This document shows, in pieces, positions 22,698-64,000 of a DNA stretch of 64,000 nucleotides. The notes below the pieces were generated by a model. That model saw only the letters and a list, made by a program, of their open reading frames with translations. It did not search any database and was not told where the DNA came from. Within the stretch, counting starts at the first letter, position 1. Every line of letters starts with the position of its first letter. Location of the stretch: assembly GCA_026396805.1 (NCBI GenBank), contig JAPLVZ010000009.1, forward strand, positions 4,058 through 68,057, read 5' to 3'. The DNA comes from Candidatus Falkowbacteria bacterium. GTDB taxonomy: Bacteria > Patescibacteriota > Patescibacteriia > Patescibacteriales > UBA12465. A program made the translations under genes and the position numbers.

Positions 22698-24107
22698 ATG
22701 ACTAGCGAACAAATCTGGCAAGCCGTCTTAGGAGAAATAGAATTAAGCTTATCAAGAGCTAATTTTGTTACTTGGTTTAAAGATACTTTCATCTCTTCTT
22801 TTGAAAATAACCGAATCATCATCTGCGTCCCTAATGCTTTCGTTAAAAAATGGCTGGAAGAGAAATACCATAAGAATATTCTAAGCGCCTTAGAGAGCGT
22901 CACTAAGCAAAAAATCCAAGAAATTATTTATAAGATAGAATTGAGAAGGGGGCCGATTCCGATATTAATGGTTGACGGGTCGGAAAACAAGACAGAAGAG
23001 AACGCCTCGTCCAACCAGTTTAAGAAAAGGGAAACAGCGATAAATAGCAATTCCTCCTCTAACAATGGGGCCAGTAACCAGCAAGGATTGAATTCGCGCT
23101 ATCAGTTTGAAAATTTCGTAGTCGGCCGGGGTAACGAGCTGGCTCACGCCGCTTGTTTGGCGGTCGTTGAAAATTTGGGTAAGTCTTATAATCCTTTATT
23201 TATTTATGGGGGGGTCGGGCTAGGCAAAACCCATCTATTACAAGCTATCGGCAACGCCGTTTCCAAAAAGACAAATAAAATCTTATACGCCACCAGCGAA
23301 AAATTCACCAATAATTATATCCAGGCCGTAAAAAGCGGTAAAGCCAAAGAGTTTAAAAATTTATACCGCAATGTTGATTTACTGTTAGTCGATGACGTCC
23401 AATTCATGGGCGGGAAAGACGGGACCCAAGAAGAATTCTTCCACACCTTTAATGAGCTGCAACAGAATGACAAGCAAATAGTGCTTACTTCCGACCGACC
23501 GCCAAAATCAATCCCCGCCATCGAAGGCCGCCTGATTTCCCGTTTTGAGTCGGGGATGGTGGCTGATATCGGCAAGCCGGATATTGAAACCAAGATTGCT
23601 ATTTTAGAAAAAAAATCTATTGAAAAAGGCTGTCCGCTCGATCGGGAGATATTGGCTTATATCGCCGAACACGTTCAAAATAATATCCGCGAACTGGAGG
23701 GCGCTCTGATAAAAGTTATCGCTTCCCATCAGTTTAAAGGATTGACGCCGAATTTAAAAAGTGTCAAGGAAATTCTTAGCGACTATGTTTCCAATATCAA
23801 AATTAAGTCGCTGACCCCCAAAGAGATTGTCGAGGCGACGGCCAGGTTTTACAACACGACCTATAAAGATCTGATCGGGAAAAGCCGTAAAAAAGAATTG
23901 GTTTGGCCCAGACAAATCGCCATCTTCCTTATCAGAGAAGATATCGGCACCTCGTACCCGACCATCGGAGCCGAATTGGGGGGGCGCGACCACACCACGG
24001 CCATGCATTCTTATAATAAAATCCAGCGCGAAACCGTAGAAAAAGGGAATGAAAAAATAAAACAAGAATTAAACTCCATCAGGCAATTGTTTAATTCTTC
24101 CTATTAA
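22698..24107 (+). CDS. dnaA: chromosomal replication initiator DnaA
   Basis: AAA+ Walker A GGVGLGKTHLL, LLVDDVQF box, C-terminal DNA-binding signature LGGRDHTTAMHS; Asn/Ser-rich linker after domain I. Confidence 0.97.
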   Translation: MTSEQIWQAVLGEIELSLSRANFVTWFKDTFISSFENNRIIICVPNAFVKKWLEEKYHKNILSALESVTKQKIQEIIYKIELRRGPIPILMVDGSENKTEENASSNQFKKRETAINSNSSSNNGASNQQGLNSRYQFENFVVGRGNELAHAACLAVVENLGKSYNPLFIYGGVGLGKTHLLQAIGNAVSKKTNKILYATSEKFTNNYIQAVKSGKAKEFKNLYRNVDLLLVDDVQFMGGKDGTQEEFFHTFNELQQNDKQIVLTSDRPPKSIPAIEGRLISRFESGMVADIGKPDIETKIAILEKKSIEKGCPLDREILAYIAEHVQNNIRELEGALIKVIASHQFKGLTPNLKSVKEILSDYVSNIKIKSLTPKEIVEATARFYNTTYKDLIGKSRKKELVWPRQIAIFLIREDIGTSYPTIGAELGGRDHTTAMHSYNKIQRETVEKGNEKIKQELNSIRQLFNSSY

Positions 24108-24388
24108 CCAAAGCCCCTGCCTGTGGAATAATCTGTTAACAACTTGTTAAGTTCTTGATGAAAAAAATCATACCCGGGGGATAAAAATGAATTTAAAAAA
24201 GTTGCCCCCAAAGAGCAACCAAGAATAAACAATTAAAACCCTTCTTTGCCACCTAAGGGGAGTAGTAGAAAAACCAATAAAAACCTAATCAAAAATAAAT
24301 AAATTAAATAAATCTAAAGTTATCCCCGCCCTTATTACTGTTATTAGTTTAATATATATAAATTAATAATATAGTAACCATTAAATAT
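24108..24388. promoter_or_regulatory. candidate oriC (dnaA-dnaN spacer with DnaA-box-like motifs and AT-rich tract)
   Basis: TGTGGAATA 24122-24130, GGGGGATAA 24176-24184, TTGCCCCCA 24202-24210, TTATCCCCG 24320-24328 (6-7 of 9 matches to TTATCCACA or its complement); long A/T runs 24266-24388. Confidence 0.5.
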
Positions 24389-25513
24389 ATGCGCTTAGTC
24401 AGCTTGCAGGAAAATTTAAAGAAAGGATTAAACTTAGTGGGACATATAACCACTAAGAATATTAATTTGCCGATTCTTAATAATATCTTGATAAAAGCCG
24501 AAAAGGGGAATATTGAGCTGATAAGCACTAATCTGGAAATAGGCGTTATTCACCAATTGCGCGGTAAAATAGAGGCCGACGGGCAATTCACGGTTGATTC
24601 TAAACTTATTACTGAATATGTTAACTTACTGAACGGAACCGGGAAGGTCAAATTAGAAGAGAAGGACGGCGAATTGAGACTGGAATGCGGCAACTACAAG
24701 ACTAAGATTAAAGGCGACCTCGCCAAAGAATTTCCTTTAATTCCGGTTATTCCTAAAGATACTTACTTCAGTTGTCAGATTGCCGATCTTAGAAAAGCCC
24801 TGAATAGCGTTATCTTTGCGGTCTCTACCAGTGAGAATAGGGTAGAGCTGACCGGCGTTCTCTTTTCGTTCTTAAAGGATAAGTTGAGTTTAGCCGCCAC
24901 TGACAGCTATCGTCTGGCAGAAAGCGAGATTAACGTGGTTAACAAGGGAGCTAAAGATAATGTTAAAGTTATCGTTCCGGCCAAAACCGCGGGCGAGTTT
25001 CTTAGAATATTAAACAGTCTTGATTTAAGCTCGTTAGAGTCGGAAGTCGATGTTAAAATTTATATAACCGAAAACCAGATATTATTTACAGTCGATTCCG
25101 TTGACTTAATTTCTCGTTTGATTAACGGACATTACCCGGATTACAAGCAGATTATCCCGACGCAGAGTCAGACGGAAATATTAGTGGAGAGAGGAGAACT
25201 GACGAGAGCGGTTAAAGCGTCGGCGCTTTTTTCAAAAACTGGAATTAACGACGTTACTCTTAAATTTTCTAAAAACAAAATTATTGTTTCGGCCTTTTCC
25301 GGGGCCAGCGGTGAAAGCCAGGCCGAGATTGACGCGACTGTGACCGGCGGAGACAATGAGATAACTATAAATTATCGCTATTTAATCGACGGTTTAAATA
25401 ATATCAGCGGCGACTTGGTCAGGATAGGAATTTTAAACAGTAATACCCCGTGTGTCTTAAAAGCGGAAAAAGATGATAGTTATTTGTATATCGTCATGCC
25501 GATAAGACAGTAA
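24389..25513 (+). CDS. dnaN: DNA polymerase III beta sliding clamp
   Basis: 374 aa, three-domain clamp pattern, position after dnaA, C-terminal YLYIVMPIR. Confidence 0.95.
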   Translation: MRLVSLQENLKKGLNLVGHITTKNINLPILNNILIKAEKGNIELISTNLEIGVIHQLRGKIEADGQFTVDSKLITEYVNLLNGTGKVKLEEKDGELRLECGNYKTKIKGDLAKEFPLIPVIPKDTYFSCQIADLRKALNSVIFAVSTSENRVELTGVLFSFLKDKLSLAATDSYRLAESEINVVNKGAKDNVKVIVPAKTAGEFLRILNSLDLSSLESEVDVKIYITENQILFTVDSVDLISRLINGHYPDYKQIIPTQSQTEILVERGELTRAVKASALFSKTGINDVTLKFSKNKIIVSAFSGASGESQAEIDATVTGGDNEITINYRYLIDGLNNISGDLVRIGILNSNTPCVLKAEKDDSYLYIVMPIRQ

Positions 25514-28539: not shown

Positions 28540-30120
28540 ATGAATTTTCGCCATCTTTTTGAAAAGCCCATTAAAAACGTTCCTCAATTAGAGACGGTCT
28601 CTTCTGAAACAGCCAAATTTAAGCCTTCAGCTAAGATGTCTAAAGAGAAAATTGCTTTAGGAGTAGGCGCGGCCGCTTTAGTTTTTGGAAGTGTCCAGGC
28701 CGAAGCAATGAACGGCCCGGAAACGAAAGATGATAAAAAAACTAAAATAGAAACTAGCGCCGATAATTCAGATAAAAGACCGGAGTCCCCGACAACCTAT
28801 CGGATGAGCGGAGCGGATTTTGCTCCGGCTGAAACTAATCGAGTCGGCGGAGCGGATTCCCCGATTCGAGTCGGCGGAGCGGACCCGTCTAAAGCGCGAA
28901 GCTGGATAGAAAAACAAACAAAAGAAAATGGCCAAGAATTAGTGCGTCTTAATTTTGCCATTAATTTTTTTGTTGATAAGGCGGATATCTCCCCTGATGA
29001 CGCGAAAGAAATCGCGGCGCAGTTTTCAGAATTTTTAGATAATATCAAGCCGGAAAATTATCAACAGGTTCTAGAATCGGAGTGGGTCGTTTTTAGTTCT
29101 TGCAGTGAAGAACAAACGCTTAATTGGGGGGAAGAGGGTAATAAAAATTTGGCCGAGGCGCGCGGCGCGGCGACTATGGAAATTTTAAAAAAAGAATTAG
29201 CGACGCATAATTTTTCCGCTTTGGACGCCGGGAAGGTACCGGCTTTAAAAGATAAAAAGATCGACGTTACCATTGCTTCCGAGCACTCGGAAAATTTAGG
29301 AGTTACTTTGGTAACTGATTTAAATAATCCGGACACGGGAGAGAAGTATACTGCTTCTGAAGTGGAAAAAATGAAGAAGGATGATCCGGAAAAATATGAG
29401 CAGCTAAAAGCGAAAAATCGATTCGCCTATTTTAAAGCGGAAGTTGTCAGTGAATCGGAAAAAACTTCGGGAAATATCGTTAAATTAATTTCTCAATATG
29501 ATCGTTCGATTTTTATGGCTGATAAAAGCGGTTCTATGAGGGATGATTTGAAGGATATGTATAATGAGGTGAAAGAGGAAATAAGCTCTTTGCCTGGGAC
29601 CGAGCTTCTTTTATCTAATTACTCCGATAAGTTTGAAGGGATAAAGGAATTTAACGTTAATAAAGTTGAAGAAAATTTCAGTGCCAAGATCGGTCCTTGC
29701 CAAGAAACGACTATTCCGGTCTTGGCAAAATTATTGGAGCATTTATCGGCCGATTCGTCGGCTAAGGAAAATTTAAAAACCATTATTACCGTTCATACCG
29801 ATGAATCTTTGCAGTTTTTTAATTATTACGCTTTAGAGTATATTGATAATCTAGCTAAAAAATCCCGAACCGAGATTGTGTTTGTTTTTTATTCCAAACC
29901 TGACCCCAAGTGGAATAATCCCGACGACCCGGCCTTTAAAGGTGAAAAGGTTATGGTGTCCTTGGATGACGTTATGAAAAATACCGCTAATTTTCTAAAA
30001 TTAGATAGCATTAGCGCTACTGATAAAGAAAAAATAGATAAGGCTAAAGTAAAAATAATAGATTTGAGCGATTTTAAGAATAAAAATGGTCGGACAGTCT
30101 CTTTGCCAACTTATAATTAA
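28540..30120 (+). CDS. secreted or anchored protein with vWA-like C-terminal domain and possible OmpA-like middle region
   Basis: Hydrophobic segment ALGVGAAALVFGSVQAEA; tandem RVGGADSP/RVGGADPS; NKNLAEARGAATMEILKKEL resembles the OmpA_C NxxLSxxRA motif; MIDAS-like DKSGSM. Confidence 0.6.
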   Translation: MNFRHLFEKPIKNVPQLETVSSETAKFKPSAKMSKEKIALGVGAAALVFGSVQAEAMNGPETKDDKKTKIETSADNSDKRPESPTTYRMSGADFAPAETNRVGGADSPIRVGGADPSKARSWIEKQTKENGQELVRLNFAINFFVDKADISPDDAKEIAAQFSEFLDNIKPENYQQVLESEWVVFSSCSEEQTLNWGEEGNKNLAEARGAATMEILKKELATHNFSALDAGKVPALKDKKIDVTIASEHSENLGVTLVTDLNNPDTGEKYTASEVEKMKKDDPEKYEQLKAKNRFAYFKAEVVSESEKTSGNIVKLISQYDRSIFMADKSGSMRDDLKDMYNEVKEEISSLPGTELLLSNYSDKFEGIKEFNVNKVEENFSAKIGPCQETTIPVLAKLLEHLSADSSAKENLKTIITVHTDESLQFFNYYALEYIDNLAKKSRTEIVFVFYSKPDPKWNNPDDPAFKGEKVMVSLDDVMKNTANFLKLDSISATDKEKIDKAKVKIIDLSDFKNKNGRTVSLPTYN

Positions 30121-54678: not shown

Positions 54679-55980
54679 ATGCAAGTTATTAAAAAAGATT
54701 TACCCAAATCACAGATTGAATTGACCGTGGAGCTGTCCAACGAAGAGTTCGCTCCTTATATTGAGAAAGGAGCGGAAAAGGTTTCTAAAGAAGTCAAAAT
54801 CGAAGGCTTCCGGCCGGGCAAAGTTCCGCTTAACGTCTTAAAGCAGAAGATTGGCGAGATGACTATCTTAGAAGAAGCCGCTAATTTGGCCATTCGTAAG
54901 ACTATCGACGAAGTAGTTGAGAAAAATACTATGGGTCGTCAGGCTGTCGGCCAGCCGCAAGTAAACGTCACTAAGCTCGCGCCGAATAATCCTTTGGAAT
55001 ATAAAGTTATTGTTTCTATTCTCCCGGAAATTGCTTTAGGAAAATATAAGGATTTAAATATCAAGCCGGAAGAGGCCAAGGTAGAGGGCAAAGAATTAGA
55101 GCGAGCCATGAATGATCTAAGGGAAATGCGCGCGAGCGAAGTTATTGTCGACCGGGAAGTGAAAATGAGCGATAAGGCGGTAGTGGATATCAAGATGTTT
55201 TTAGATAAAGTACCGCTCGAGGATGGCGAACATAAAGAATTAGGATTATTACTCGGCAAAGATTATTTCGTGCCTGGTTTTGACAAAAAGCTCGTCGGCG
55301 CGAAGAAAGGCGAGAAGCGAAAATTTGAGCTTCCTTATCCCGACAATCATCATCAGAAAAATCTCGCCGGCAAGATGGTTGAGTTTGAGGTTACCGTTAA
55401 GGAGGTTTATGATCGTATCCTGCCGGAATTAAACGATGAATTTGCCACTTTTTTTCAGCTTAAGGATCTGGAAGAATTAAAGAAAAATTTGGAAGCCAGC
55501 TTGCTTCAAGAGAAGAAACATCGGGCGGATTTAAAAAATGAATCAGAGCTGCTCTCTAAAATAGTCGCCGACGCCAAATTTGGAGAATTCCCGGAAGAAA
55601 TAATCCAGAACGAACTCAAGAATATGCTGGCCGAACTGGAGCAGAGCGTCGTCCGCCAGGGCGGGAAGTTTGAAGATTATTTGTCCAGTCTCAAGAAAGA
55701 TCGGGCGGCCCTAATGTTAGAAATGGCGCCTAACGCCGTTAAGCGCATCAAATCAGCGCTCATTATTCGCGAACTGGCTGTTATTGAAAAGATCGCGCCG
55801 ACCGAACATGAAATCCATGAAAAGATTGACGAGCTCAAAAAGCAATATGCGAGCAATAAGGAAGTTATGAAAATGTTGGAGGAGCCGGGTTACTATACTT
55901 ATTTAGCTAATATCTTGACTAATGAAAAAGTAATCGCGAAATTAAAAGAATGGAACTATGCCAAGCCTGGCGCAAAATAA
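54679..55980 (+). CDS. tig: trigger factor
   Basis: 433 aa, N-terminal ribosome-binding GFRPGKVP motif, central FKBP-like domain. Confidence 0.93.
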   Translation: MQVIKKDLPKSQIELTVELSNEEFAPYIEKGAEKVSKEVKIEGFRPGKVPLNVLKQKIGEMTILEEAANLAIRKTIDEVVEKNTMGRQAVGQPQVNVTKLAPNNPLEYKVIVSILPEIALGKYKDLNIKPEEAKVEGKELERAMNDLREMRASEVIVDREVKMSDKAVVDIKMFLDKVPLEDGEHKELGLLLGKDYFVPGFDKKLVGAKKGEKRKFELPYPDNHHQKNLAGKMVEFEVTVKEVYDRILPELNDEFATFFQLKDLEELKKNLEASLLQEKKHRADLKNESELLSKIVADAKFGEFPEEIIQNELKNMLAELEQSVVRQGGKFEDYLSSLKKDRAALMLEMAPNAVKRIKSALIIRELAVIEKIAPTEHEIHEKIDELKKQYASNKEVMKMLEEPGYYTYLANILTNEKVIAKLKEWNYAKPGAK

Positions 55981-56416
55981 AAAAGCCCGATTTGATTATG
56001 AGATACTGGATAAATATGAAGCCGGTCTAGTTCTCTATGGCCACGAAGTCAAAGCGGTGCGCGCCGGTCAGGTCAGTCTGAAGGGCAGTTATATCTCCGT
56101 TCGGACTAAAAACGGGAAAACCGAACTCTATCTTATCAGCGCCATGATTTTCCCTTATAAGTCTGCCGGACCGATGCCGAACTATAATCAGACGCGGGAA
56201 CGCAAATTACTTTTGAAAAAAGGGGAAATTAGTCAATTATTAGGCAAGAAACAGACCGAGGGCTTGACACTCGTCCCCCTCAAAATATATACTAATCATA
56301 GTTTTCTGAAGCTTGAATTCGCCGTCGCCAAAGGCAAGAAGAAATATGATAAGCGCGAGGCGATTAAGAAGCGAGAAGTAGACAGAAATCTAAGGTCATT
56401 AACAAAAAGGCGCTAG
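55958..56416 (+). CDS. smpB: SsrA-binding protein SmpB
   Basis: ARFDYEILDKYEAGLVLxGxEVK pattern, basic C-terminal tail; overlaps tig by 23 nt and precedes the tmRNA. Confidence 0.93.
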   Translation: MPSLAQNKKARFDYEILDKYEAGLVLYGHEVKAVRAGQVSLKGSYISVRTKNGKTELYLISAMIFPYKSAGPMPNYNQTRERKLLLKKGEISQLLGKKQTEGLTLVPLKIYTNHSFLKLEFAVAKGKKKYDKREAIKKREVDRNLRSLTKRR

Positions 56417-56434: not shown

Positions 56435-56818
56435 GGGGATGCAAGGCCTCGACAGCCGGCCTTTTTCTAAATATTCAAAACGCGCTTAGTTATCCGCGTT
56501 AAACTGACTAAAAAACATAATTGCCAAAACGGCAAGAGCATTCACTTGGGCTTGCCCGAGCTATGCTCCAGTTATGGCCTAATTAATAAAGCCATAGCCA
56601 TCGGACACGGCCAGTCTTCATAACCGTTTTTCCGGTGTCATTAACATGAAGATAGATACTATCCGCTCTTTCCGGAAAGATATCGAAACAACAGAAAGAT
56701 CGTTCCAATCGCTTTTGTTCGGTTTCTGATGATTGGGATTAAACAACAAAATCGATCTATTTTTGTAAATGTATTTAGATAAACCGACTGGACATGGGTT
56801 CAACTCCCATCATCTCCA
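56435..56818 (+). ncRNA. ssrA: tmRNA (SsrA)
   Basis: 5' GGGGATGCAAGGCCTCGACAG, 3' GGACATGGGTTCAACTCCCATCATCTCCA; acceptor pairing GGGGATG/CATCTCC includes G3-U; internal tag frame ending ...SYAPVMA-TAA at 56580-56582; directly after smpB. Confidence 0.9.
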
Positions 56819-56832
56819 CATTAGTTAGCAGC

Positions 56833-56914
56833 GGTCCAGTGGTGGAACTGGTATACACGCAGCACTTAAAATGCTGTGCCGTAAGGTATGTGGGTTCGAT
56901 TCCCACCTGGACCA
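56833..56914 (+). tRNA. tRNA-Leu, anticodon UAA (class II, long variable arm)
   Basis: Acceptor GGTCCAG/CTGGACC, anticodon stem CAGCA/TGCTG, loop CTTAAAA, 13-nt variable arm, T arm GTGGG-TTCGATT-CCCAC. Confidence 0.9.
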
Positions 56915-56927
56915 CGTAGTTTAAATT

Positions 56928-57002
56928 GCGGGTATAGTATAGTGGTTATTATACGTGCTTGCCAAGCACGATAGACGGGTTCGATTCCCGTTACCCGCTC
57001 CA
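56928..57002 (+). tRNA. tRNA-Gly, anticodon GCC, CCA encoded
   Basis: Acceptor GCGGGTA/TACCCGC, anticodon stem CGTGC/GCACG, loop TTGCCAA, T arm ACGGG-TTCGATT-CCCGT, discriminator U, CCA 57000-57002. Confidence 0.92.
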
Positions 57003-57121
57003 AACGAGAAACACCATTTTATTGGTGTTTTTTGTTGTTTGTTTACCGATTATGGCTTAGGCCTAACAGGGATTGAAAAATATTAAAATTATTGACACTT
57101 ACGATTAGGTTGTGCTATATT
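56997..57121 (+). repeat. junction module copy 1 (core GCTCCA, hairpin-terminator, GGGATTGAAAAA, promoter)
   Basis: 56997-57038 matches 58879-58920 at 41 of 42 nt; hairpin ACACCA-TTTTAT-TGGTGT 57011-57028 plus U-run; TTGACA 57092-57097, 18-nt spacer, TATATT 57116-57121. Confidence 0.85.
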
Positions 57122-57174
57122 CTTTTATTACCTTAAAAATAGAATAATCACTAAAATTTATAGGAGGATTAAAC

Positions 57175-57957
57175 ATGAACTTAACATTAGACGAGCTTAA
57201 ACCATATTTTGGCGGATGGTTAGAGATCAAGAAAACAAATGCATGTCATTTTCAAGGAGGAATCAGGACCCTAACTATCACCGACGGTAATATCTTAAAA
57301 ATTGAGTTTGTTTGGAAGATGCAATTTGAGGGATGGCCGAGTAAAAACCCCAGATGGATCCATGTTCCAGAATTTACGGAATATAATATCAATCTTGAGG
57401 ATTGCAGTGTTCCTAGTTGGGAAACGGTTAAAGAAAAAACAATTCTTCTTTACTTTGCTTCTGCCGATGGAAAAATAATATTTCATATGGCTAATGACAT
57501 GAATCCCATCAAAACGCTGGATACTGAAGGCTGCCCCGTGTTGCTTAGACTGGAACTACAAAAAATGAAAGAGCAGTTTCTTTCGGTAATGGATCTAAGC
57601 AAGATATCAAGAGTTAATTTCGATTTAGCACTAATCCCCATTAAGGAGGGCTGCAGATTTATGCGAATTGATTTAAAATGGCAAGGCGCCATAAAGTCTT
57701 TCATAAGGATTCAGAAAAATGCCGAAGACAACCATGCTCGTATTTATTATGGTCTTCTTCACGAAATTGCCGGACAGTTTTCGTTAACGCACTATGACAT
57801 AGAACACTTAATGTCTGATAGGGGCGGAGGATTTCTACGGCGCTTAGAAGAAAACAATATAGAAGTTTGGGGATCAAGTTCATATTTTCCTGGAGAACCG
57901 AACCATGAACTAACCAGAAGTATTTTAAGGGAAGAATTGTTTTGTCAGGTTAGTTGA
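57175..57957 (+). CDS. hypothetical protein (cassette 1 cargo)
   Basis: 260-aa ORF with strong RBS (TAGGAGGATTAAACATG), own promoter and terminator; no family recognised by eye. Confidence 0.75.
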   Translation: MNLTLDELKPYFGGWLEIKKTNACHFQGGIRTLTITDGNILKIEFVWKMQFEGWPSKNPRWIHVPEFTEYNINLEDCSVPSWETVKEKTILLYFASADGKIIFHMANDMNPIKTLDTEGCPVLLRLELQKMKEQFLSVMDLSKISRVNFDLALIPIKEGCRFMRIDLKWQGAIKSFIRIQKNAEDNHARIYYGLLHEIAGQFSLTHYDIEHLMSDRGGGFLRRLEENNIEVWGSSSYFPGEPNHELTRSILREELFCQVS

Positions 57958-58010
57958 TAAGAGTTTGGACAATCAAAACAATGAATGATTGATTGATTGA
58001 GAATAGTAAG

Positions 58011-58045
58011 GCTGGGTGTAATAATATCCCAGCTTTTTTATTTTC
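58011..58045 (+). terminator. terminator of cassette 1 gene
   Basis: GCTGGG (58011-16) pairs with CCCAGC (58028-33), then TTTTTTATTTT. Confidence 0.75.
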
Positions 58046-58047
58046 CT

Positions 58048-58108
58048 AAATTTATAACCAAACTGCAAAAGGAGCTCACAAACAAAGCAGTCCAAAAGGG
58101 CTGTTTTT
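58048..58108 (+). repeat. cassette end motif copy 1 plus degenerate junction hairpin
   Basis: AAATTTATAACCAAACTGCAAAAGGAGCTC; 58050-58077 is identical to 58855-58882 (28 nt); then ACAAACAAAG, hairpin CAGTCC-AAAA-GGGCTG (58088-58103), TTTTT. Confidence 0.85.
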
Positions 58109-58159
58109 GTGTTATAATATGTATAATATCAATATCTCGCCATAATAAATCACAAATCT

Positions 58160-58801
58160 ATGCCCTCTACAAAAATCTTTCTCACCTCTTCCGTCAATCT
58201 CGTCGCGAAAGATATCGCCCAAAAGATTGGCGGCGCCAAGAACAAAAAACTTCTTTATATCTATACCGCTTGCGAAAAGAAGCTTGGCGAGCCTTGGCAA
58301 ATAGCCGATAGAAACGCTCTCGTTGAAGCCGGTTTCAAAGTTATTGATTATACAATAACCGGTAAAACTAAAGAAGCTATAAAAAAAGACATTCAAAAAA
58401 TAGATGTCATATATTTTAGCGGCGGGAACACCTTTTATCTTCTTCAGCAAATTCAACTCACCAAATCCGCTCCTATATTTCGCGAGGTTGTAAAAAATGG
58501 CAAGATTTATATTGGCACCAGCGCCGGTTCTATTGTGGCTGGCCCGGATATTTATCCAACTTACAAATTAGACAACGCGAAGCAAGCACCAAAGTTAAAA
58601 GGTTATAAAGGTTTGGGTCTAGTGGATTTTGTTGTCTTGCCCCATTGGGGCAGCCAACATTTTAAAAAACGTTACCTTAAGCAAAGATTAGCCCATAACT
58701 ATAACACCAAGCATAAGTTAGTTATTTTAAACGACTATCAATATCTGCAGATAGAAGACGGGTGGTATCGAATGGTTGAGATTAAACATAAAACTAGTTA
58801 A
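58160..58801 (+). CDS. peptidase S51 (dipeptidase E-like) family protein (cassette 2 cargo)
   Basis: IYFSGGNTFYLL, IGTSAGSIVAGP (nucleophile Ser context), LPHW; extended -10 TGTTATAAT at 58110-58118 upstream. Confidence 0.75.
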   Translation: MPSTKIFLTSSVNLVAKDIAQKIGGAKNKKLLYIYTACEKKLGEPWQIADRNALVEAGFKVIDYTITGKTKEAIKKDIQKIDVIYFSGGNTFYLLQQIQLTKSAPIFREVVKNGKIYIGTSAGSIVAGPDIYPTYKLDNAKQAPKLKGYKGLGLVDFVVLPHWGSQHFKKRYLKQRLAHNYNTKHKLVILNDYQYLQIEDGWYRMVEIKHKTS

Positions 58802-58852
58802 TTAATTGTTAGTTTATATACGAGAAAGATCTCTCAACTCTACATTAATTTT

Positions 58853-58995
58853 AGATTTATAACCAAACTGCAAAAGGAGCTCCAAACGAGAAACGCCATT
58901 TTATTGGTGTTTTTTGTTGTCGATTTAGCTATTTTAGGTTAGGGATAACGGGGATTGAAAAGTATTGACTAAAACAAAATATTATTGTAATATTT
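58853..58995 (+). repeat. cassette end motif copy 2 plus junction module copy 2
   Basis: AGATTTATAACCAAACTGCAAAAGGAGCTC, core and hairpin ACGCCA-TTTTAT-TGGTGT (58893-58910), GGGGATTGAAAA (58950-58961), TTGACT 58965-70, 17-nt spacer, TAATAT 58988-93. Confidence 0.85.
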
Positions 58996-59040
58996 AATGT
59001 CCTTAATTAATGTATCATTAACAACAAAAATACACAGAAA

Positions 59041-59352
59041 ATGGAAACAGTTACAGAATTTACCGTAATGGGTGAGAAACAAAAAGTCAAAGTTCTTTTT
59101 GAGAGTGTTTTTCAAATGAAATATTTCATTCGATTCACTCGAAACATTATTATTAGTATCGCCGAAGGCAATAATAGTCGGACAACCGGCGATATATTTT
59201 TCTGGAAAAAGGGAAATGATGAAGTTTATAAATCTATTGGTTACATGGACCTCGCTGAAAGAGATACAAATGATACTCTTTGGAGAGTCCAACCGAAAAG
59301 AACATCCTGTGTTGAGCTCGGGAAAAGGATAGTTATGTTTCTGACCGATTAA
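59041..59352 (+). CDS. hypothetical protein (cassette 3 cargo)
   Basis: 103-aa ORF downstream of the junction promoter and followed by a terminator; preferred over the overlapping antisense ORF 58969..59292, whose product looks like noise. Confidence 0.55.
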   Translation: METVTEFTVMGEKQKVKVLFESVFQMKYFIRFTRNIIISIAEGNNSRTTGDIFFWKKGNDEVYKSIGYMDLAERDTNDTLWRVQPKRTSCVELGKRIVMFLTD

Positions 59353-59377
59353 ACTGATTTCTCAGAAAAACCGGACT

Positions 59378-59405
59378 AAGGCTGAATTTGTGTCAGCCTT
59401 TTTTA
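59378..59405 (+). terminator. terminator of cassette 3 gene
   Basis: AAGGCTGA (59378-85) pairs with TCAGCCTT (59393-400), then TTTTT. Confidence 0.75.
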
Positions 59406-59412
59406 TATCCTC

Positions 59413-59487
59413 AAATTTATAACAAAACCGCAAAATGAACCCGGACGTAAAATAAACGAAAAACAGACCTGGTTCCGGTCTGTTTTT
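59413..59487 (+). repeat. cassette end motif copy 3 plus junction hairpin (also a bidirectional terminator)
   Basis: AAATTTATAACAAAACCGCAAAATGAAC (59413-59440), A-rich spacer, hairpin ACAGACC(T)GG-TT-CCGGTCTGT (59463-59483) flanked by A-run and T-run. Confidence 0.75.
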
Positions 59488-59559
59488 GCTGTCCAGATAA
59501 ATATTCTTTTTGCGGGGCCTATAAGTTATTGATATCGGGCGACAGAATAAAGCTTTTAT

Positions 59560-61290
59560 TTATTGAAATTTAATATAATTATGCCGCGGGCAAACGATAA
59601 CTTTATCCCCATCTTTAAAAATTTTAGTGGCGTATTTGGTGGCGATTAAGCAAGGAATATTAAGCTCTCGAGAAACAATGGCCGCGTGGCAGGTGATACC
59701 GCCATGGTCGGTGACGATGGCGGCGGCTTTTTTCATGGCCGCCAGAATATCCGGGGTGGTGGCGACAGAAATCAAAACATCTCCTTCCCGCATTTTATTC
59801 ATATCCGCCGTTGAATTGATTATTTTTACTTCTCCATAAATCCAATTGCCGGTTTTCCCCAAGCAAGCGGCCGTCCCTTCCAATAATTTTAGATTTTGGC
59901 CGTCTTGGATGGCCTTTTCCGGTTCGATATTTTTTTGCAAGTACTTGTCCGCCGCCGCGCCGTATAAGAATTTTTTGTCTTGATAAGGATAAACGCAATA
60001 ATTGCTTCTTTCCTGCAGTTCTTGGCGGGAAACGGTTAAGCGGCCACGCAATAAATCTTTGGATTCTTCCCGGGTCAGATTAAATAGGTCTTCTTTTTTA
60101 TAATCCGGCGCCAATTTGGCAAAAATCTGATACATCAGATAGAAGATCAGGAAGGCGGTATCTTTGCGGTGTATCTTTAAATAGGAAAGCAGGCCTAAGG
60201 CGTTAATGAAGTTTTGATGCCGGAGGTCAATCTTTAATTGACGATAAATTTCTTGCTTGCTGGCTTGGACTTCTTTTTCATTATTAAGCAAGCTGTTTTT
60301 TTCTTTTTCCAGCTCCGTCCTATTTTTTGCCCGGAGCTCCTTAAAAATTTGTTGAAAATATCCTAATTCAAAACCCGGACCGACATAACCATAATTAAGC
60401 CAGCGCCAACGGGAATAAATATCCTTTAATTCTTGTAGGCAGGGGCTATTTTGGCTCTTTAAGGCTAATTCTAATAATTCCAGTCTTAGTATCTGGGTAT
60501 AAGTTAATTTTTCCGGAGCCAATAGCCGTTCCATGACATAACCTAAGTTCAATTTGGTCGGTTTGATTTTATTGACCAAATATTTTTTTAAATAATTGGA
60601 GAAGAGCTGATCTTTCAGATCGAAGATAGCGATAGTGTTCAGACCGATTTGAATAGAAATAATTTCCAAAAATTTATCGAAGAGCCGCAGCGCTTTATTT
60701 TTAGAAATTTGGAAATTATTTTGATAGAGTTCCTGAAAGATTTTTTTAGCCTCTTCGCCGACCGCGATACTTTCCGGATAAATGATTTTAAAAACGAAAG
60801 TCGGATTTTTCAGCAGTTTTTTTAAAGAATCCTCGGCCCCCTGTTCAATTATGTCTTTTTCGAAATAGAATTGACCATAATTTCCCCTATAAACGGCGAT
60901 AGCGTCAGACACTTTTTTAATAATTCCTTTCCGGACCCCGTAATCGGACACATAAGCAATCAACATATAGTCAAGCGATAAAAAACAAACGCCGCTCTCT
61001 TCGTTTAATAAGAAATATTTTTGTTTTTGTTCATCTCGCTCCAGAAAAATTCCCTGTAAAGATTTGAAGAAACGATAATCATTGTTCAGGGAATAGAAAT
61101 TCTGCCGATTTTTTTGTTTTTTGAAAACTATATTCAGTTTTATCAATTTATCTAATTCTCGTTGCACGTTCGCCTGATTTTTATCAGTCAATTTGATTAT
61201 TTCCGAAGTCGATAATAATTCGGTTCGATTATCGAAAAGGACGGAAAGAATATCAAACGTTATTTGAGAAGAGAATAGTTTATTAATCAT
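59560..61290 (-). CDS. wHTH DNA-binding domain fused to unknown central region and C-terminal PEP-utilizer phosphohistidine swivel domain
   Basis: N-terminus LSTSEIIKLTDKNQANVQRELDKLIKLNIV (ArsR/MarR-like wHTH); C-terminus EGDVLISVATTPDILAAMKKAAAIVTDHGGITCHAAIVSRELNIPCLI matches the PEP-utilizing-enzyme mobile domain with the conserved His. Confidence 0.8.
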   Translation of the reverse strand: MINKLFSSQITFDILSVLFDNRTELLSTSEIIKLTDKNQANVQRELDKLIKLNIVFKKQKNRQNFYSLNNDYRFFKSLQGIFLERDEQKQKYFLLNEESGVCFLSLDYMLIAYVSDYGVRKGIIKKVSDAIAVYRGNYGQFYFEKDIIEQGAEDSLKKLLKNPTFVFKIIYPESIAVGEEAKKIFQELYQNNFQISKNKALRLFDKFLEIISIQIGLNTIAIFDLKDQLFSNYLKKYLVNKIKPTKLNLGYVMERLLAPEKLTYTQILRLELLELALKSQNSPCLQELKDIYSRWRWLNYGYVGPGFELGYFQQIFKELRAKNRTELEKEKNSLLNNEKEVQASKQEIYRQLKIDLRHQNFINALGLLSYLKIHRKDTAFLIFYLMYQIFAKLAPDYKKEDLFNLTREESKDLLRGRLTVSRQELQERSNYCVYPYQDKKFLYGAAADKYLQKNIEPEKAIQDGQNLKLLEGTAACLGKTGNWIYGEVKIINSTADMNKMREGDVLISVATTPDILAAMKKAAAIVTDHGGITCHAAIVSRELNIPCLIATKYATKIFKDGDKVIVCPRHNYIKFQ

Positions 61291-61301
61291 ATAAGGATTA
61301 T

Positions 61302-61339
61302 TATGCTAATTTAGTATAACAATATGTTATATTAGCATA
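61302..61339. promoter_or_regulatory. nested palindrome, operator candidate upstream of the wHTH-swivel gene
   Basis: TATGCTAAT-TTAG-TATAACA-ATA-TGTTATA-TTAGCATA, 12 nt from the start codon at 61290; a third TATGCTAAT lies at 61428-61436 within GCTAATCTTAGC. Confidence 0.55.
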
Positions 61340-61548
61340 GCTACTTTCAAAAAGCAAGACTTTTCCACTTATTTTTAGCTTATTTCGCTGAATTTTTTGC
61401 TTCTTATATAATTATTATGTAATAAAATATGCTAATCTTAGCTAAAAATTAATTTTTGGAATGATTGCTTTATTAATCTCTATTTACTTTTTATTTTGTT
61501 CTGACTATAATTGGAATACTCAAGTTATAATAATTAATTTCTAAAAAT

Positions 61549-62700
61549 ATGGGATTTTTTGAAAAACTTGGTTTTAACAACCCTAAAGCCAAAGAAGTGC
61601 CTCTATCGCGATTGGGTGCAAGAACTAGAGCAGAAAAATTAGCCGAAGATAAAGAAAAAAGGGAAGATTGGGCTATGAATAAAAAAGGTGACAGAGCGGA
61701 TATGTCGGAAAAAGGCCGCAGTTTGCCTTCGCGGGAAACTCCTGATGGTTATAGTGAAAACGAAGGTTGGTATCAGGACGAGAAACGCTTGAGACAGTCG
61801 TTTGATGAAAATGATGAAAATGGGATTCCCAATAATGAAGCGGTTTCTAACGACGATTATTGTAAACAGACAGCTCAACCCGAAGACGGTGTGGTAGAAG
61901 AAAATATCGGAGATTTGAAAAAAATATTAGATAAGAAATTAGCCGGTAAATTAGCTAATACCCCCGATCGTCTGAAAAGGGCCAGGGTTTCTCTCTCCGG
62001 GAAAAGTGAAATCGAGCAAACGCTTGCGAAGACCAGGGAAGTGTATTCCGGTACCGAGGAAGAACAATTAGACGCCAAGATAGATCTCGATTTAATGAAA
62101 GGAAGAAAAGAAGCGTTTTTTCGGAGGATAGAGAGAAATAAAACCGAGAGAGCGAATAAGGAAAGTGCTCAAAAAAGTTTCGATAAAATTAAAAGAGCCG
62201 CTCCAGAATATTCCGACAGTGAAATAGCATTAATGACGAAGGCTTTCAATTGGCTGAGATTACCCGAGAAGCGACGGCAAGAATCTCCGCTGCTTGATGT
62301 TAAAGGCGGGCCGCTAAAACCCGAAGAAATTTTAGAACTGGCTAACGACTATGGCGATTACCAGGTTGAGCAAGGCGAATGGGGGAAGGCGCGTTTTAAG
62401 TCGGAGAATTTTCGGGGACGAGAGCAATTAGTCAATTATAAAACATTATCGGACGGTCAGATTGAGAAATATATCGCCCATAGTGATGACCCCGGCGATT
62501 ATTATTATGACTTAAAGGAAAAAAGCACCGTAGACAGTAAGAATAATGATAAGATGAAATATGTTTTTGTAAAAACCATTCCCGGGTTATTACCGCGCCG
62601 ATTAGAAACCAGGGGTGGTTTACCTTCAAATCGTCAAAGAACGCCAGACGATAAAAGCAAGGCAGGTAAAAAGCCGGCGCTCGAGACACTGGCCGCTTAA
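61549..62700 (+). CDS. highly charged hypothetical protein (cassette 4, divergent from the wHTH-swivel gene)
   Basis: 383-aa ORF rich in E/K/D/R, probably largely disordered; C-terminus ...KPALETLAA. Confidence 0.65.
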   Translation: MGFFEKLGFNNPKAKEVPLSRLGARTRAEKLAEDKEKREDWAMNKKGDRADMSEKGRSLPSRETPDGYSENEGWYQDEKRLRQSFDENDENGIPNNEAVSNDDYCKQTAQPEDGVVEENIGDLKKILDKKLAGKLANTPDRLKRARVSLSGKSEIEQTLAKTREVYSGTEEEQLDAKIDLDLMKGRKEAFFRRIERNKTERANKESAQKSFDKIKRAAPEYSDSEIALMTKAFNWLRLPEKRRQESPLLDVKGGPLKPEEILELANDYGDYQVEQGEWGKARFKSENFRGREQLVNYKTLSDGQIEKYIAHSDDPGDYYYDLKEKSTVDSKNNDKMKYVFVKTIPGLLPRRLETRGGLPSNRQRTPDDKSKAGKKPALETLAA

Positions 62701-62703
62701 ATT

Positions 62704-62839
62704 ATCTATATTAATCCATAAAAGAGATTCTAAGTAAAAAGCACCGTTTTATCGGTGTTTTTTTGTGTCTATTGAATCGCCCTATGTCAGCGGTAAGGGG
62801 AATTGAAATCTTGACTTAAACGAAGTATTGGGGTAATAT
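62704..62839 (+). repeat. cassette end motif copy 4 plus junction module copy 3
   Basis: TATCTATATTAATCCATAAAAGAGATTCT (62704-62731), hairpin GCACCG-TTTTAT-CGGTGT (62741-62758) plus U-run, GGGGAATTGAAA (62797-62808), TTGACT 62811-16, 17-nt spacer, TAATAT 62834-39. Confidence 0.8.
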
Positions 62840-62953
62840 AAAAAGTCAACATCAGCTCTTTAAAAAATAAGGTTAATTGGATTAATTACTAAATCCATCT
62901 AAATTCAGGTGGGGTTAAAAATTAATCCAATTATTAATTTAAATCATGTAATC

Positions 62954-63319
62954 ATGGAAAAATATCGTAGTAAAGCTTTTATTACAACATCGGTAACACT
63001 ACTTTCCTTTTCGTTCATCGTCCTTAATGTAATACCGATAATTATGCCCAGTCTTGTGGCTTATGTCTTTGGATCTAATAAGTACAGATATAAAACTCTG
63101 TATGGATTATCCAGCATTCATTTTCTGATTTCGATGCTGGCCGGCGAATTGACCTTTTTCATAATCAGTTCTTTCGCCATCAATTATATTATGGATTTTT
63201 ATAATCCTAAAATATTTTGGTATATAGTTATCGCTAGCTTTATATCAAACTATTTATTCTCGGTAATTTTCTATTTTTTAGGGAGTTATCTGGCTAAAAT
63301 TAGAAAAGCCAGAGGTTAA
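62954..63319 (+). CDS. small polytopic membrane protein (cassette 5)
   Basis: Four hydrophobic helices; start set at ATG 62954 (track uses GTG 62909); start choice uncertain. Confidence 0.55.
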   Translation: MEKYRSKAFITTSVTLLSFSFIVLNVIPIIMPSLVAYVFGSNKYRYKTLYGLSSIHFLISMLAGELTFFIISSFAINYIMDFYNPKIFWYIVIASFISNYLFSVIFYFLGSYLAKIRKARG

Positions 63320-63370
63320 ATTAGTTGTTATAGAACTTTCACAAATAAATTCACTTAATATAGGAGAACC

Positions 63371-63892
63371 ATGAAAAAATCAAATGAATCACCAGTAGGA
63401 AAAAGGCCATTCCACGAATCAATCGTGGATGCAATTAGTTATTGCCCTTTTAGCGCCCTCGATGTTTTAGCCAGACTTATTAAATCCACCAAAATTCCAC
63501 AGAATCATGATGCCATCATTGAGGCCTGGAAAAGAGCGATGGAGATTATAAATTCCGATGATGATTATGGCGTTCCTGAAAGTGTTTCAGGACAAAAGCC
63601 TGTCGATTATGTACAGTTAATGAATTCAGCCGGGAGTCTCGAAGAAGCCCTTAGGCTGGGATTTGATTTTCTTCCTCTTGACGGGAGATTTTTGGGCCCC
63701 CAGGGAAAAATATTATTATTCCGCAATAATCTTCCCAAGGGCCATGAAGAAGTCGCTGAAATAATAGTGACGGACGCTGAAAAAAATGACGGTAAAATAA
63801 TTTTTTGTGCCGCCTGGGGGAAGGATTATAAAAAATACGAACTAACAGCCAATTCTGGAGATAAAATTGAGGATTGGTCTGACAAATGGTAA
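63371..63892 (+). CDS. hypothetical protein (cassette 5)
   Basis: 173-aa ORF with RBS ATAGGAGAACCATG and downstream terminator; no family recognised. Confidence 0.7.
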   Translation: MKKSNESPVGKRPFHESIVDAISYCPFSALDVLARLIKSTKIPQNHDAIIEAWKRAMEIINSDDDYGVPESVSGQKPVDYVQLMNSAGSLEEALRLGFDFLPLDGRFLGPQGKILLFRNNLPKGHEEVAEIIVTDAEKNDGKIIFCAAWGKDYKKYELTANSGDKIEDWSDKW

Positions 63893-63912
63893 AAGATTAA
63901 ACAGGGTAAACA

Positions 63913-63946
63913 AAAAGGAAGACCAAAATTTTAGGCTTCCTTTTTT
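63913..63946 (+). terminator. terminator of cassette 5
   Basis: GGAAG(A)CC ... GGCTTCC followed by TTTTTT. Confidence 0.7.
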
Positions 63947-63971
63947 CATATCCTCTATGGCGGTAGTTTTT

Positions 63972-64000
63972 AAATTTATAATTAATCCGCGAAAGGATCT
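63972..64000 (+). repeat. cassette end motif copy 5 (runs into window edge)
   Basis: AAATTTATAATTAATCCGCGAAAGGATCT aligns with the other four end motifs (AAATTTATAA..GC.AAAGGA.CT). Confidence 0.7.

Follow-up and report, generated by a model that had tools for sequence, protein, structure and literature searches.

Tandem accretion at tRNA and tmRNA genes, integrase-less elements moved in trans and small promoter-bearing modules are all known already. Cis-mobilizable elements (CIMEs) as well as integrative mobilizable elements (IMEs) are recombinase-less, attachment-site (att)-bounded elements that accrete in tandem beside an integrative and conjugative element at a tRNA gene or another att site (PMC5704250; for Streptococcus, PMC7563491). 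In Prochlorococcus, the tycheposons themselves encode a tyrosine or serine recombinase, together with a replication module, and partial tRNA copies of ~40 nt lie between them (10.1101/2020.12.28.424599). In Dehalococcoides, ssrA islands accumulate in tandem and site-specifically at the tmRNA locus (PMC3146451), and the dif modules of Acinetobacter are plasmid-borne and bounded by pdif sites, which are 28-bp XerC/XerD dyads in alternating orientation (PMC6449649). Here we analyze a 64,000-nt stretch of a Candidatus Falkowbacteria bacterium (assembly GCA_026396805.1, contig JAPLVZ010000009.1, positions 4,058 to 68,057; the whole stretch is called the window), in which small gene cassettes, each ending in a 33-nt motif termed E, follow the 3' end of a tRNA-Gly(gcc) gene. 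The initial annotation of this DNA could match the array to no described class, a statement that was too strong in view of CIME/IME, tycheposon and Dehalococcoides accretion.

The region from tRNA-Gly to the downstream S1 gene is a hypervariable island of Falkowbacteria-like Patescibacteria, and its tRNA-proximal part is a head-to-tail array of self-contained transcription units of 0.6–3.3 kb. The island is very probably a horizontally exchanged cassette island anchored at tRNA-Gly. On balance, we lean towards its formation by tandem accretion of integrase-less cassettes, joined at GCTC by a site-specific recombinase that acts in trans. The central proposal of the initial annotation, a tandem cassette array at the tRNA-Gly 3' end, is thus upheld by the occurrence of E only downstream of tRNA-Gly, by breakpoints at the junctions, by interchangeable segments meeting at GCTC and by integrases at the same site in relatives.

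The cassettes share one plan, in which ...GCTC is followed by a terminator hairpin, often a promoter (sometimes with GGGRATTGAA first), one or two cargo genes and a copy of E ending in GCTC(CA). E denotes the full consensus TAAATTTATAACCAAACTGCAAAAGGAGCTCCA, and the 30-mer core used for searching was AAATTTATAACCAAACTGCAAAAGGAGCTC. An end motif had been proposed at five sites of the window. The copies at 58048, 58853, 59413 and 63971/63972 hold, but that at 62704 is unsupported, with a local alignment score of 18.5 against a null 95th percentile of 20.0. This site is still a true junction, since homology to a relative (L006; L numbers designate the loci compared) restarts at 62733; the bases from 62732 read AAGTAAAAAGCACCG. 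The 3' part of E1 reads ...AAAAGGAGCTC, continued from 58078 by ACAAACAAAGCAGTCC, that of E3 reads ...AAAATGAACCC, and E2 ends in GCTCCA, as tRNA-Gly does. Both repeats reported earlier are present. Positions 58050–58077 equal 58855–58882 exactly over 28 nt, and 56997–57038 matches 58879–58920 at 41 of 42 positions, with A against G at the corresponding base 57013/58895. The latter repeat consists mostly of the hairpin module, and the likeness extends to 88 nt at 85% (56997–57084). None of 100 shuffled sequences gave two matches to the 30-mer. The remaining 56 kb of the window contain no copy of E, either at up to 8 mismatches or by profile search, and E was accordingly rejected as a generic intergenic element. 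Proceeding outward from the tRNA, the E copies score 31.1, 29.9 and 20.2 bits, then undetected, 16.7 and 6.9 bits. E was also rejected as a partial tRNA, because its match to tRNA-Gly is limited to the last 6 nt; the att-like junctions of the initial annotation are overstated in that their conserved identity with the tRNA comprises GCTC(CA) and no partial tRNA.

A hairpin with a U-run occurs at six junction sites, five in the window and one just beyond it, their folding energies lying between −12.9 and −17.4 kcal/mol and their z-scores between −3.2 and −7.5, in agreement with the initial description of such a structure after every junction. That description had divided it into an A-rich spacer and a 6-bp hairpin; the spacer is actually the 5' arm of a single 11–14-bp stem that pairs with the U-run, some of the pairs being G.U. 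As folded, these structures look like bidirectional terminators acting at the RNA level. The notion that the hairpin types are generic terminators of this genome was rejected, as within the window they were found at the junctions only, and the earlier concern that the junction might be a generic spacer between core genes is likewise contradicted by the absence of both E and the hairpins from the rest of the window.

Exact-pattern scans of public contigs, followed by the profile search that had been recommended, located further E arrays in Patescibacteria contigs, giving 32 distinct junctions in which ~30 core positions are each 75–100% conserved and the upstream cargo is unrelated. Almost all of them continue with an A-tract, a hairpin and a U-run. 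Arrays of 2–5 copies in the same orientation were found in L013/55, L027/37, L058, L020, L063 and L053. E lies downstream of tRNA-Gly and on the same strand in all 12 loci that contain both, and other E loci sit upstream of the S1 gene, i.e. in the same island. Two genes serve as anchors: tRNA-Gly(gcc) after tmRNA and, in L031/36 and L060, tRNA-Gly(tcc), which has the same 3' half. E with its hairpin gave nothing significant against GenBank phages (one 20-nt chance match to part of the hairpin, E-value 0.7) and no match among PLSDB plasmids. Pattern matches in Clostridia, SAR116, Staphylococcus and a 124-kb IMG/VR contig were dismissed as chance, being without GGAGCTC and hairpin and mostly coding. 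The unrelated contig L061 (1676–1710) has an ATG 6 nt past a 28-nt E-like sequence, TAAATTTATAATCAAACTGCGAAAGGAG, which seems to serve there as a ribosome-binding region. Logan contigs of this strain (L161–L169 and L002) often start within the 3' portion of tRNA-Gly or within E1, as expected if co-occurring genomes share these k-mers; they provide indirect evidence that E occupies several genomic contexts in the same samples.

The loci of relatives, anchored on SmpB homologues and compared all against all, share the left flank and then differ in gene content. In most pairs, core synteny with at least ten relatives stops 0–2 nt from the tRNA-Gly end. The alignment with L006 (GCA_030692125.1; ~90% nucleotide identity) runs by BLAST to 57038, the hairpins differing from 57003 onward, and the match resumes at 62733, where L006 has a 23-nt partial copy of tRNA-Gly in place of E. 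The intervening 1.9-kb insert of L006 (11085–12945) holds the genes of a 363-aa radical SAM/SPASM enzyme and of a Cys/Gly-rich peptide of 49 aa, which look like a pair for a ribosomally synthesized and post-translationally modified peptide. On either side of the insert stands the 23-nt direct repeat that copies the 3' end of tRNA-Gly; farther in are direct repeats of ~130 nt, each with TTGTGAC twice, and there is no integrase inside. L011, L068 and L072 carry yet other genes at the tRNA-Gly end. Two loci from one metagenome, L044 and L053, are 97.5% identical up to ...GGAGCTCA and unrelated thereafter, with a type f and a type a hairpin, respectively. Across the comparison, 98 of 732 alignment ends fall within 70 nt of a junction, compared with 18.2 ± 4.2 for random placement (maximum 36 in 2000 trials), and within islands 15 of 188 do so against 4.5 ± 2.0 by chance; the ends are not independent events, and these enrichment figures are descriptive only. 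The expectation that gene-content differences between relatives would break at the junctions is thus supported by L006, by L044/L053 and by the clustering of alignment ends.

The proposed exchange point can be placed more closely by the hairpins. About six hairpin types (a–f) are found, often in near-identical form, in both settings: right behind tRNA ...GCTC in some genomes and right behind E ...GCTC in others. In the window, the unit 1 hairpin begins at the first base past the tRNA, the sequence from 57003 being AACGAGAAACACC, and unit 3 starts with AACGAGAAACGCC; the type a module occurs 3' of E at window position 58885 and also in L058, L031/36, L027/37 and L053. Near-copies of the unit 2 start are found 3' of tRNA-Gly at the integrase insertions of L159 and L008, and in L159 the sequence between tRNA-Gly and the integrase, ACAAACAAAGGCAGTCCGAAAGGGCTG, is almost the same as that past E1. 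The two bases after GCTC (CA, AC or AA) track the hairpin type rather than the tRNA or E, so that the neighboring cassette decides whether the tRNA-Gly gene encodes CCA. The tRNA-Gly ends compared in this respect were GCTCCA (window, L011, L024, L037, L054 and L063) and GCTCAC or GCTCAA (L006, L008, L023, L035, L036 and L060).

Cassettes are also shared between arrays. A PEP-utilizer cassette is common to L036, at tRNA-Gly(tcc), and L068, at tRNA-Gly(gcc), and others are shared by L042/L068, L037/L058, L035/L063 and L026/L063. The gene for the 173-aa protein of unit 5 is more widespread, with homologues of 50–86% identity in arrays at tRNA-Gly(gcc) (L006, L027/37) and tRNA-Gly(tcc) (L031/36). 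The shared cassettes occupy different ranks in their arrays and different tRNA-Gly genes.

Three other genomes (L008/L155, L065 and L159) have a tyrosine integrase immediately next to the tRNA-Gly 3' end. That of L008/L155 lies directly at the tRNA-Gly end and is followed by an inovirus-like Rep–Zot prophage; an HUH-type Rep for rolling-circle replication (PF23343) is found, together with Zot, on the integrase elements of this site. The prophage (L008 11092–19459, L155 2749–11116, and also L159 885–3057) encodes a G2P-type Rep, Zot, a LexA/S24-like repressor and the tyrosine integrase, and L155 continues past it with a Dcm/NgoFVII/Vsr restriction-modification system plus GmrSD. A decayed element in L035 reaches from hairpin b and TTGTGAC repeats, at tRNA-Gly, to a copy of E at its other end, and an integrase fragment covering aa 298–341 lies 67 nt from this E. 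This arrangement suggests that E is the right end of L035-type integrase elements. The repeat TTGTGAC(N5-6)TTGTGAC stands just past the tRNA-Gly hairpin, next to the integrase end, in L159, L035 and L008, as well as at either end of the radical-SAM cassette in L006; it is absent from the window array. The repeats may be arm-type integrase binding sites. There is no partial tRNA repeat in L155, which extends the L008 prophage, no E on the short integrase contigs L158 and L159, and neither E nor the tRNA-Gly core in 80 IMG/VR loci with related integrases.

Site-specific recombination at GCTC is the probable way in which the island was built, and we infer that GCTC(CA) at 56997–57002, the end of tRNA-Gly(gcc), is both the anchor of the array and the point of crossover. 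A circular cassette would carry E–GCTC–hairpin as its recombination site, and the recombinase would act at GCTC or just past it, exchanging strands of this site with those of the tRNA-Gly 3' end or of another E. A newcomer would enter beside the tRNA and displace older cassettes outward, where their E copies would decay; the fall in E scores with distance from the tRNA is expected from such insertion and decay. The hairpin would terminate whatever lies upstream, and the promoter would free the cargo from its context. The recombinase would be encoded outside the array. Our first candidate for it is the family of tyrosine integrases seen at this tRNA-Gly end in related genomes, acting in trans, in which case the cassettes would be integrase-less derivatives or hitchhikers of those integrase elements. 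That this family drives the recombination is a tentative assignment, which we regard as a serious possibility rather than a probability.

Several observations weigh against this account. No tyrosine recombinase was found in the six-frame open reading frames (ORFs) of the window and 6.3 kb beyond it by a hidden Markov model (HMM) built on 60 Patescibacteria integrase homologues, and Pfam scans of the 30 ORFs of at least 150 aa at 1–47 kb revealed no domain of a recombinase or transposase. The same holds for the cassette proteins and for the precomputed list covering 47–56 kb (L001/L006); for the ORFs scanned, this agrees with the initial observation of no integrase or transposase in the window. 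No intact integrase adjoins E in any of the loci searched. The L008/L155 prophage could not be traced to its right end (attR), and the 10 kb fetched past its integrase are free of E. E has no dyad symmetry except GGAGCTCC, it shares just 4–6 nt with the tRNA, whereas the att overlap of tyrosine recombinases is typically longer, and the G.U pairs in the hairpin stems point to a terminator role at the RNA level rather than a role in recombination. The relatives L011 and L072 have variable islands without any E. No circular forms were seen, with terminal overlap in 0 of 15 short contigs. All 16 contigs with the exact S51 peptidase of unit 2, from at least nine sequencing runs, have one cassette order, as have those with the exact 173-aa protein. 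These independently assembled contigs indicate that the array is not an assembly artefact, and that it may be stable in this population, possibly a fossil. An invariant order had been named in advance as evidence against cassette mobility: it is indeed seen in the 16 contigs, but relatives differ at the junctions. The contig of the nearest SmpB variant (98% identity, L170) ends before the tRNA.

A bolder reading would make the locus an undescribed integron-like capture system, with tRNA-Gly as the platform, the 33-nt E as the cassette site, promoter-bearing mini-cassettes and a dedicated recombinase elsewhere. The enzyme would come from the host or from a helper element, for which the inovirus-like prophages of the same site are an example; these prophages might also replicate or package the cassettes as satellites. 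Such a system would be a convergent counterpart of integrons in ultra-small, host-dependent bacteria. We consider it possible, though somewhat doubtful.

It is unlikely, in our view, that the units are instead decayed full-size integrase elements or prophages that suffered internal deletions, with cassettes that were never mobile and E as a retained right end. The L035 element, with its integrase fragment beside E, is such a remnant, and L008, L065 and L159 have intact integrase elements at the site. The decay of E away from the tRNA and the absence of polymorphism within the population also fit this explanation. However, inert scars would drift, and E has kept its per-position conservation over 32 junctions with unrelated cargo. 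Most cassettes retain both ends, and tblastn and HMM searches revealed no integrase fragments in the window or the other arrays. In addition, the same junction-bounded cassettes recur at different positions and at two tRNA-Gly genes, and the provision of a promoter and a terminator for each unit looks organized rather than accidental.

The breakpoints at the edges of shared motifs would also be expected if E recombined with E by homology. The minimal mobile elements of Neisseria, in which cassettes are swapped via flanking homology, are a model for such exchange; here transformation and RecA would act on the E and hairpin modules (30–55 nt) as anchors, without any site-specific recombinase. 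The genome encodes DprA (2560–3711), for the uptake and processing of transforming DNA, with a type IV pilin-like gene nearby, and the ORFs scanned contain no recombinase. Yet tRNA-Gly and E have just GCTC(CA) in common while six hairpin types are found behind both, and homology of this length cannot join them. The existence and single orientation of E, its conservation across genomes with core genes only 68–80% identical and its restriction to tRNA-Gly are also left unexplained. We consider a swap by homologous recombination quite improbable.

E and its hairpin might alternatively have a regulatory or RNA-level function, as a 3' untranslated region or terminator module, as a small RNA or as a transcription-factor site that accessory genes have in common; their position in the island would then be incidental as far as mobility is concerned. 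E contains a perfect Shine–Dalgarno-like AAAGGAG and always precedes a strong terminator with G.U pairs, and in L014 and L036 the stop codon of the upstream ORF falls inside E, which would therefore be transcribed. On the other hand, E is predicted by folding to be unpaired, it matches no Rfam family, a terminator belonging to the upstream gene usually stands between that gene and E, and the distance from E to the next promoter is variable. Neither the equivalence of the tRNA end and E nor the restriction to tRNA-Gly islands follows from a regulatory role, and we hold this explanation to be very improbable. Single-strand insertion 3' of GCTC by an HUH/Y1 or rolling-circle enzyme supplied by a helper, in the manner of IS200/IS605 or a filamentous-phage satellite, is scarcely credible: the strictly oriented insertion exactly 3' of 4 nt, the hairpins near both cassette ends and the HUH Rep (with Zot) of the same-site integrase elements would suit it, but the hairpins are of at least six unrelated types and hence not conserved recognition hairpins, no HUH gene was detected in the window by Pfam scans of the cassette proteins and ORFs of at least 150 aa, and the prophage loci fetched contain no E.

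Coordinates of the RNA genes, cassette components and E copies in the window
Feature	Position	Strand	Evidence and remarks
tmRNA (ssrA)	56435–56819	+	ARAGORN; Rfam RF00023, 132 bits
tRNA-Leu(taa)	56833–56915	+	ARAGORN, Rfam
tRNA-Gly(gcc)	56928–57002	+	ARAGORN, Rfam; last bases GCTC(CA), 56997–57002
Unit 1 left end, type a hairpin	57003–57036	+	14 bp + U-run; −17.4 kcal/mol, z −7.5; terminator scan
Unit 1 element and promoter	57069–57121	+	AGGGATTGAA 57069–57078; TTGACA-18-TATATT 57092–57121 (predicted)
Unit 1 cargo, 260-aa orphan	57175–57957	+	ORF; sub-threshold Pfam match to Ocnus only
E1, right end of unit 1	58047–58079	+	TAAATTTATAACCAAACTGCAAAAGGAGCTCAC; 30-mer exact (58048–58077); nhmmer 31.1 bits
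Unit 2 left end, type b hairpin + U-run	58080–58118	+	−13.4 kcal/mol
Unit 2 cargo, peptidase S51 family, 213 aa	58160–58801	+	Pfam PF03575, 6.8e-36
E2, right end of unit 2	58852–58884	+	30-mer 58853–58882, 1 mismatch; 29.9 bits
Unit 3 left end	58885–58994	+	Type a hairpin 58885–58918, −17.0 kcal/mol; GGGGATTGAA 58950–58959; TTGACT-17-TAATAT 58965–58993 (predicted)
Unit 3 cargo, 103-aa orphan	59041–59352	+	ORF; own terminator 59378–59400
E3, degenerate	59412–59444	+	5 mismatches in 30-nt core (59413–59442); 20.2 bits; alignment score 42.5 vs null maximum 32.5
Unit 4 left-end hairpin + U-run	59459–59487	+	−14.2 kcal/mol
Unit 4 cargo, 576-aa winged helix-turn-helix (wHTH) protein with C-terminal PEP-utilizers swivel domain	59560–61290	−	Pfam PF00391, 2e-21
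Unit 4 cargo, 383-aa charged orphan	61549–62700	+	ORF
Junction 4	62697–62763	+	E-like remnant, not significant by sequence; then type a-like hairpin 62736–62763
Junction 4 hairpin	62736–62763	+	−12.9 kcal/mol, type a-like
Unit 5 element and promoter	62798–62839	+	GGGAATTGAA 62798–62807; TTGACT-17-TAATAT 62811–62839 (predicted)
Unit 5 cargo	62954–63892	+	121-aa membrane protein 62954–63319; 173-aa protein 63371–63892
E5	63971–64000	+	Cut by window edge; 6 mismatches over first 30 nt; 16.7 bits; alignment score 39

The starts of three units combine, as initially described, the element (A/G)GGRATTGAA at 57069, 58950 and 62798 with TTGACA/T promoters at 57092, 58965 and 62811. In unit 2, an extended −10 box, TGTTATAAT (58110–58118), is fused to the hairpin. 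The more general form GGGRATHGAA lies within 130 nt past 6 of 54 junctions, against ~0.26 expected. It was seen, besides the three window positions, in L011 (~11085), L024, L054, L058 and L063. It resembles the reverse complement of the tRNA T-arm (GGTTCGATTCC) as well as the 3' ends of certain CRISPR repeats.

The cargo genes are as originally described. Homologues of the PEP-utilizers domain occur in the tRNA-Gly islands of at least seven other genomes. Swivel proteins of this kind were noted as island cargo in L013/55, L027, L031/36, L060, L068 (two genes) and L072, sometimes in two copies. PADLOC models gave weak matches only, at the wHTH end of the 576-aa protein (PDC-M05A, 6e-12; Csa3/CARF-type, 1e-4 or weaker), and for a 176-aa kinase located past E5 the matches were confined to the P-loop (~1e-3).

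The left flank of the array consists of smpB (55958–56416) and tmRNA and is conserved. An Rfam scan of 55–64 kb at an E-value of up to 1 found nothing besides tmRNA and the tRNAs, an L20_leader match at 57953–58046, just 5' of E1, being judged spurious (26.5 bits against a cut-off of 58.7; E-value 0.07). In L014, a copy of E lies directly upstream of infC–rpmI–rplT, a link to the L20 leader match that is probably coincidence. To the right, the contig could be extended past 64,000 through public contigs carrying the exact 173-aa protein (L003). E5 is followed by a hairpin, a promoter, the 176-aa AAA_33 kinase, an EamA–flavokinase fusion, a 402-aa protein and a 117-aa protein. Next come a borderline E-like remnant (score 24.5), a PBP-family protein, the rpsA-like S1 gene and ftsH. 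Since S1–ftsH is the conserved right flank in relatives, the variable island spans ~11.5 kb from tRNA-Gly to S1 (57003 to ~68500).

The 30 ORFs of at least 150 aa at 1–47 kb encode, according to Pfam, housekeeping functions only (including engA, pth, dprA, topA, pheST, valS, dnaA, dnaN and a PBP) apart from three without a Pfam match, and 47–56 kb is likewise housekeeping by the precomputed Pfam lists for the region as in L001/L006. The core ORFs 17867–20167 (766 aa) and 28540–30120 (526 aa) have no Pfam match at an E-value of 1e-5 or below. The array was described as AT-rich, and its GC content of 35–40% is indeed below the ~43% of the whole window, but the core stretches at 20–26 kb and 28–32 kb are equally low. 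The dnaA gene (22698–24107), dnaA and dnaN together (within 22698–25513) and a cumulative GC-skew minimum at ~14–22 kb place oriC within the window, and hence the array, ~33 kb from dnaA, is not at the terminus.

Patescibacteria, or the candidate phyla radiation (CPR), have tiny genomes with few recognized mobile elements, and little is understood of where their strain-specific genes come from. A predictable tRNA-Gly hotspot with a 33-nt cassette-end tag would provide a direct handle on this origin. With E as a query, any metagenome can be mined for the flexible gene pool of these organisms, and exchange between lineages can be followed; the pool seen here comprises the S51 peptidase, PEP-utilizer-domain proteins, kinases, the radical-SAM/peptide pair and many orphans. 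Even if the cassettes are only scars, the locus records how islands build up and decay in streamlined genomes.

Among the described systems, the array resembles CIMEs and IMEs in its head-to-tail pile-up at one chromosomal site, in the lack of an own recombinase and in its presumed mobilization in trans by the integrase of a related element at the same site. It differs in that the units are single-gene in scale (0.6–3.3 kb) rather than islands of several kilobases or more, in that a dedicated 33-nt E sharing GCTC(CA) replaces partial-tRNA att copies, in the absence of conjugation or mobilization genes, and in its CPR host. The boundary at the tRNA-Gly 3' end, marked by the stop of synteny and by the placement of E, is a feature of tRNA islands. 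Of the partial-tRNA repeats, the window shares only GCTC(CA), and the classical form, 23 nt long, flanks the L006 radical-SAM cassette. With tycheposons the locus shares a streamlined genome, seeding at a tRNA or tmRNA gene, the displacement of older elements deeper into the island and the accumulation of degenerate remnants and cargo modules, whereas a recombinase, a replication module (primase or helicase, among the cassette proteins scanned) and ~40-nt tRNA copies are missing from the window array. The Dehalococcoides elements insert into ssrA itself, carry integrases and are many kilobases long.

The likeness to integrons lies in a one-directional array of small cassettes at a fixed platform, a recombination site that ends each cassette, a crossover at the extreme edge of this site with few shared bases, and the position of the newest cassette next to the platform. 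Integron membership was nevertheless rejected. The locus has no intI and no attI, and a tRNA gene stands upstream of the array. E is conserved in sequence and unstructured, in contrast to the structure-conserved, sequence-variable attC, and has the core GCTC(CA) instead of GTTRRRY. The cassettes carry their own predicted promoters and terminators, whereas those of integrons are mostly promoterless and driven from Pc. The dif modules are likewise small, promoter-bearing accessory modules with short conserved sites and no recombinase in cis, moved from replicon to replicon presumably by a host recombinase; E, however, lacks the two-arm dyad, has a single orientation, is chromosomal and is tied to tRNA-Gly. 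A reading as dif, Xer or integrative mobile elements exploiting Xer was rejected on the anatomy of E, which does not show a pair of 11-bp arms flanking a 6-bp spacer, and on the location of the island near oriC. IS200/IS605 elements, other insertion sequences and miniature inverted-repeat transposable elements were set aside on account of the unrelated hairpin types and of the absence of transposase domains among cassette proteins and ORFs of at least 150 aa; no terminal inverted repeats were found among the 25 longest of 53 inverted-repeat pairs.

Searches of the literature on islands, integrons and cassettes of CPR/Patescibacteria yielded no description of this arrangement. The miniature single-gene scale, the dedicated 33-nt E sharing only GCTC(CA), the two tRNA-Gly anchors and the CPR host are new, and the absence of a recombinase found in cis is also unusual. 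If a recombinase acting in trans does exchange strands at GCTC, the island would represent a compact new site-specific system that stands, conceptually, between integrons, dif modules and tRNA islands.

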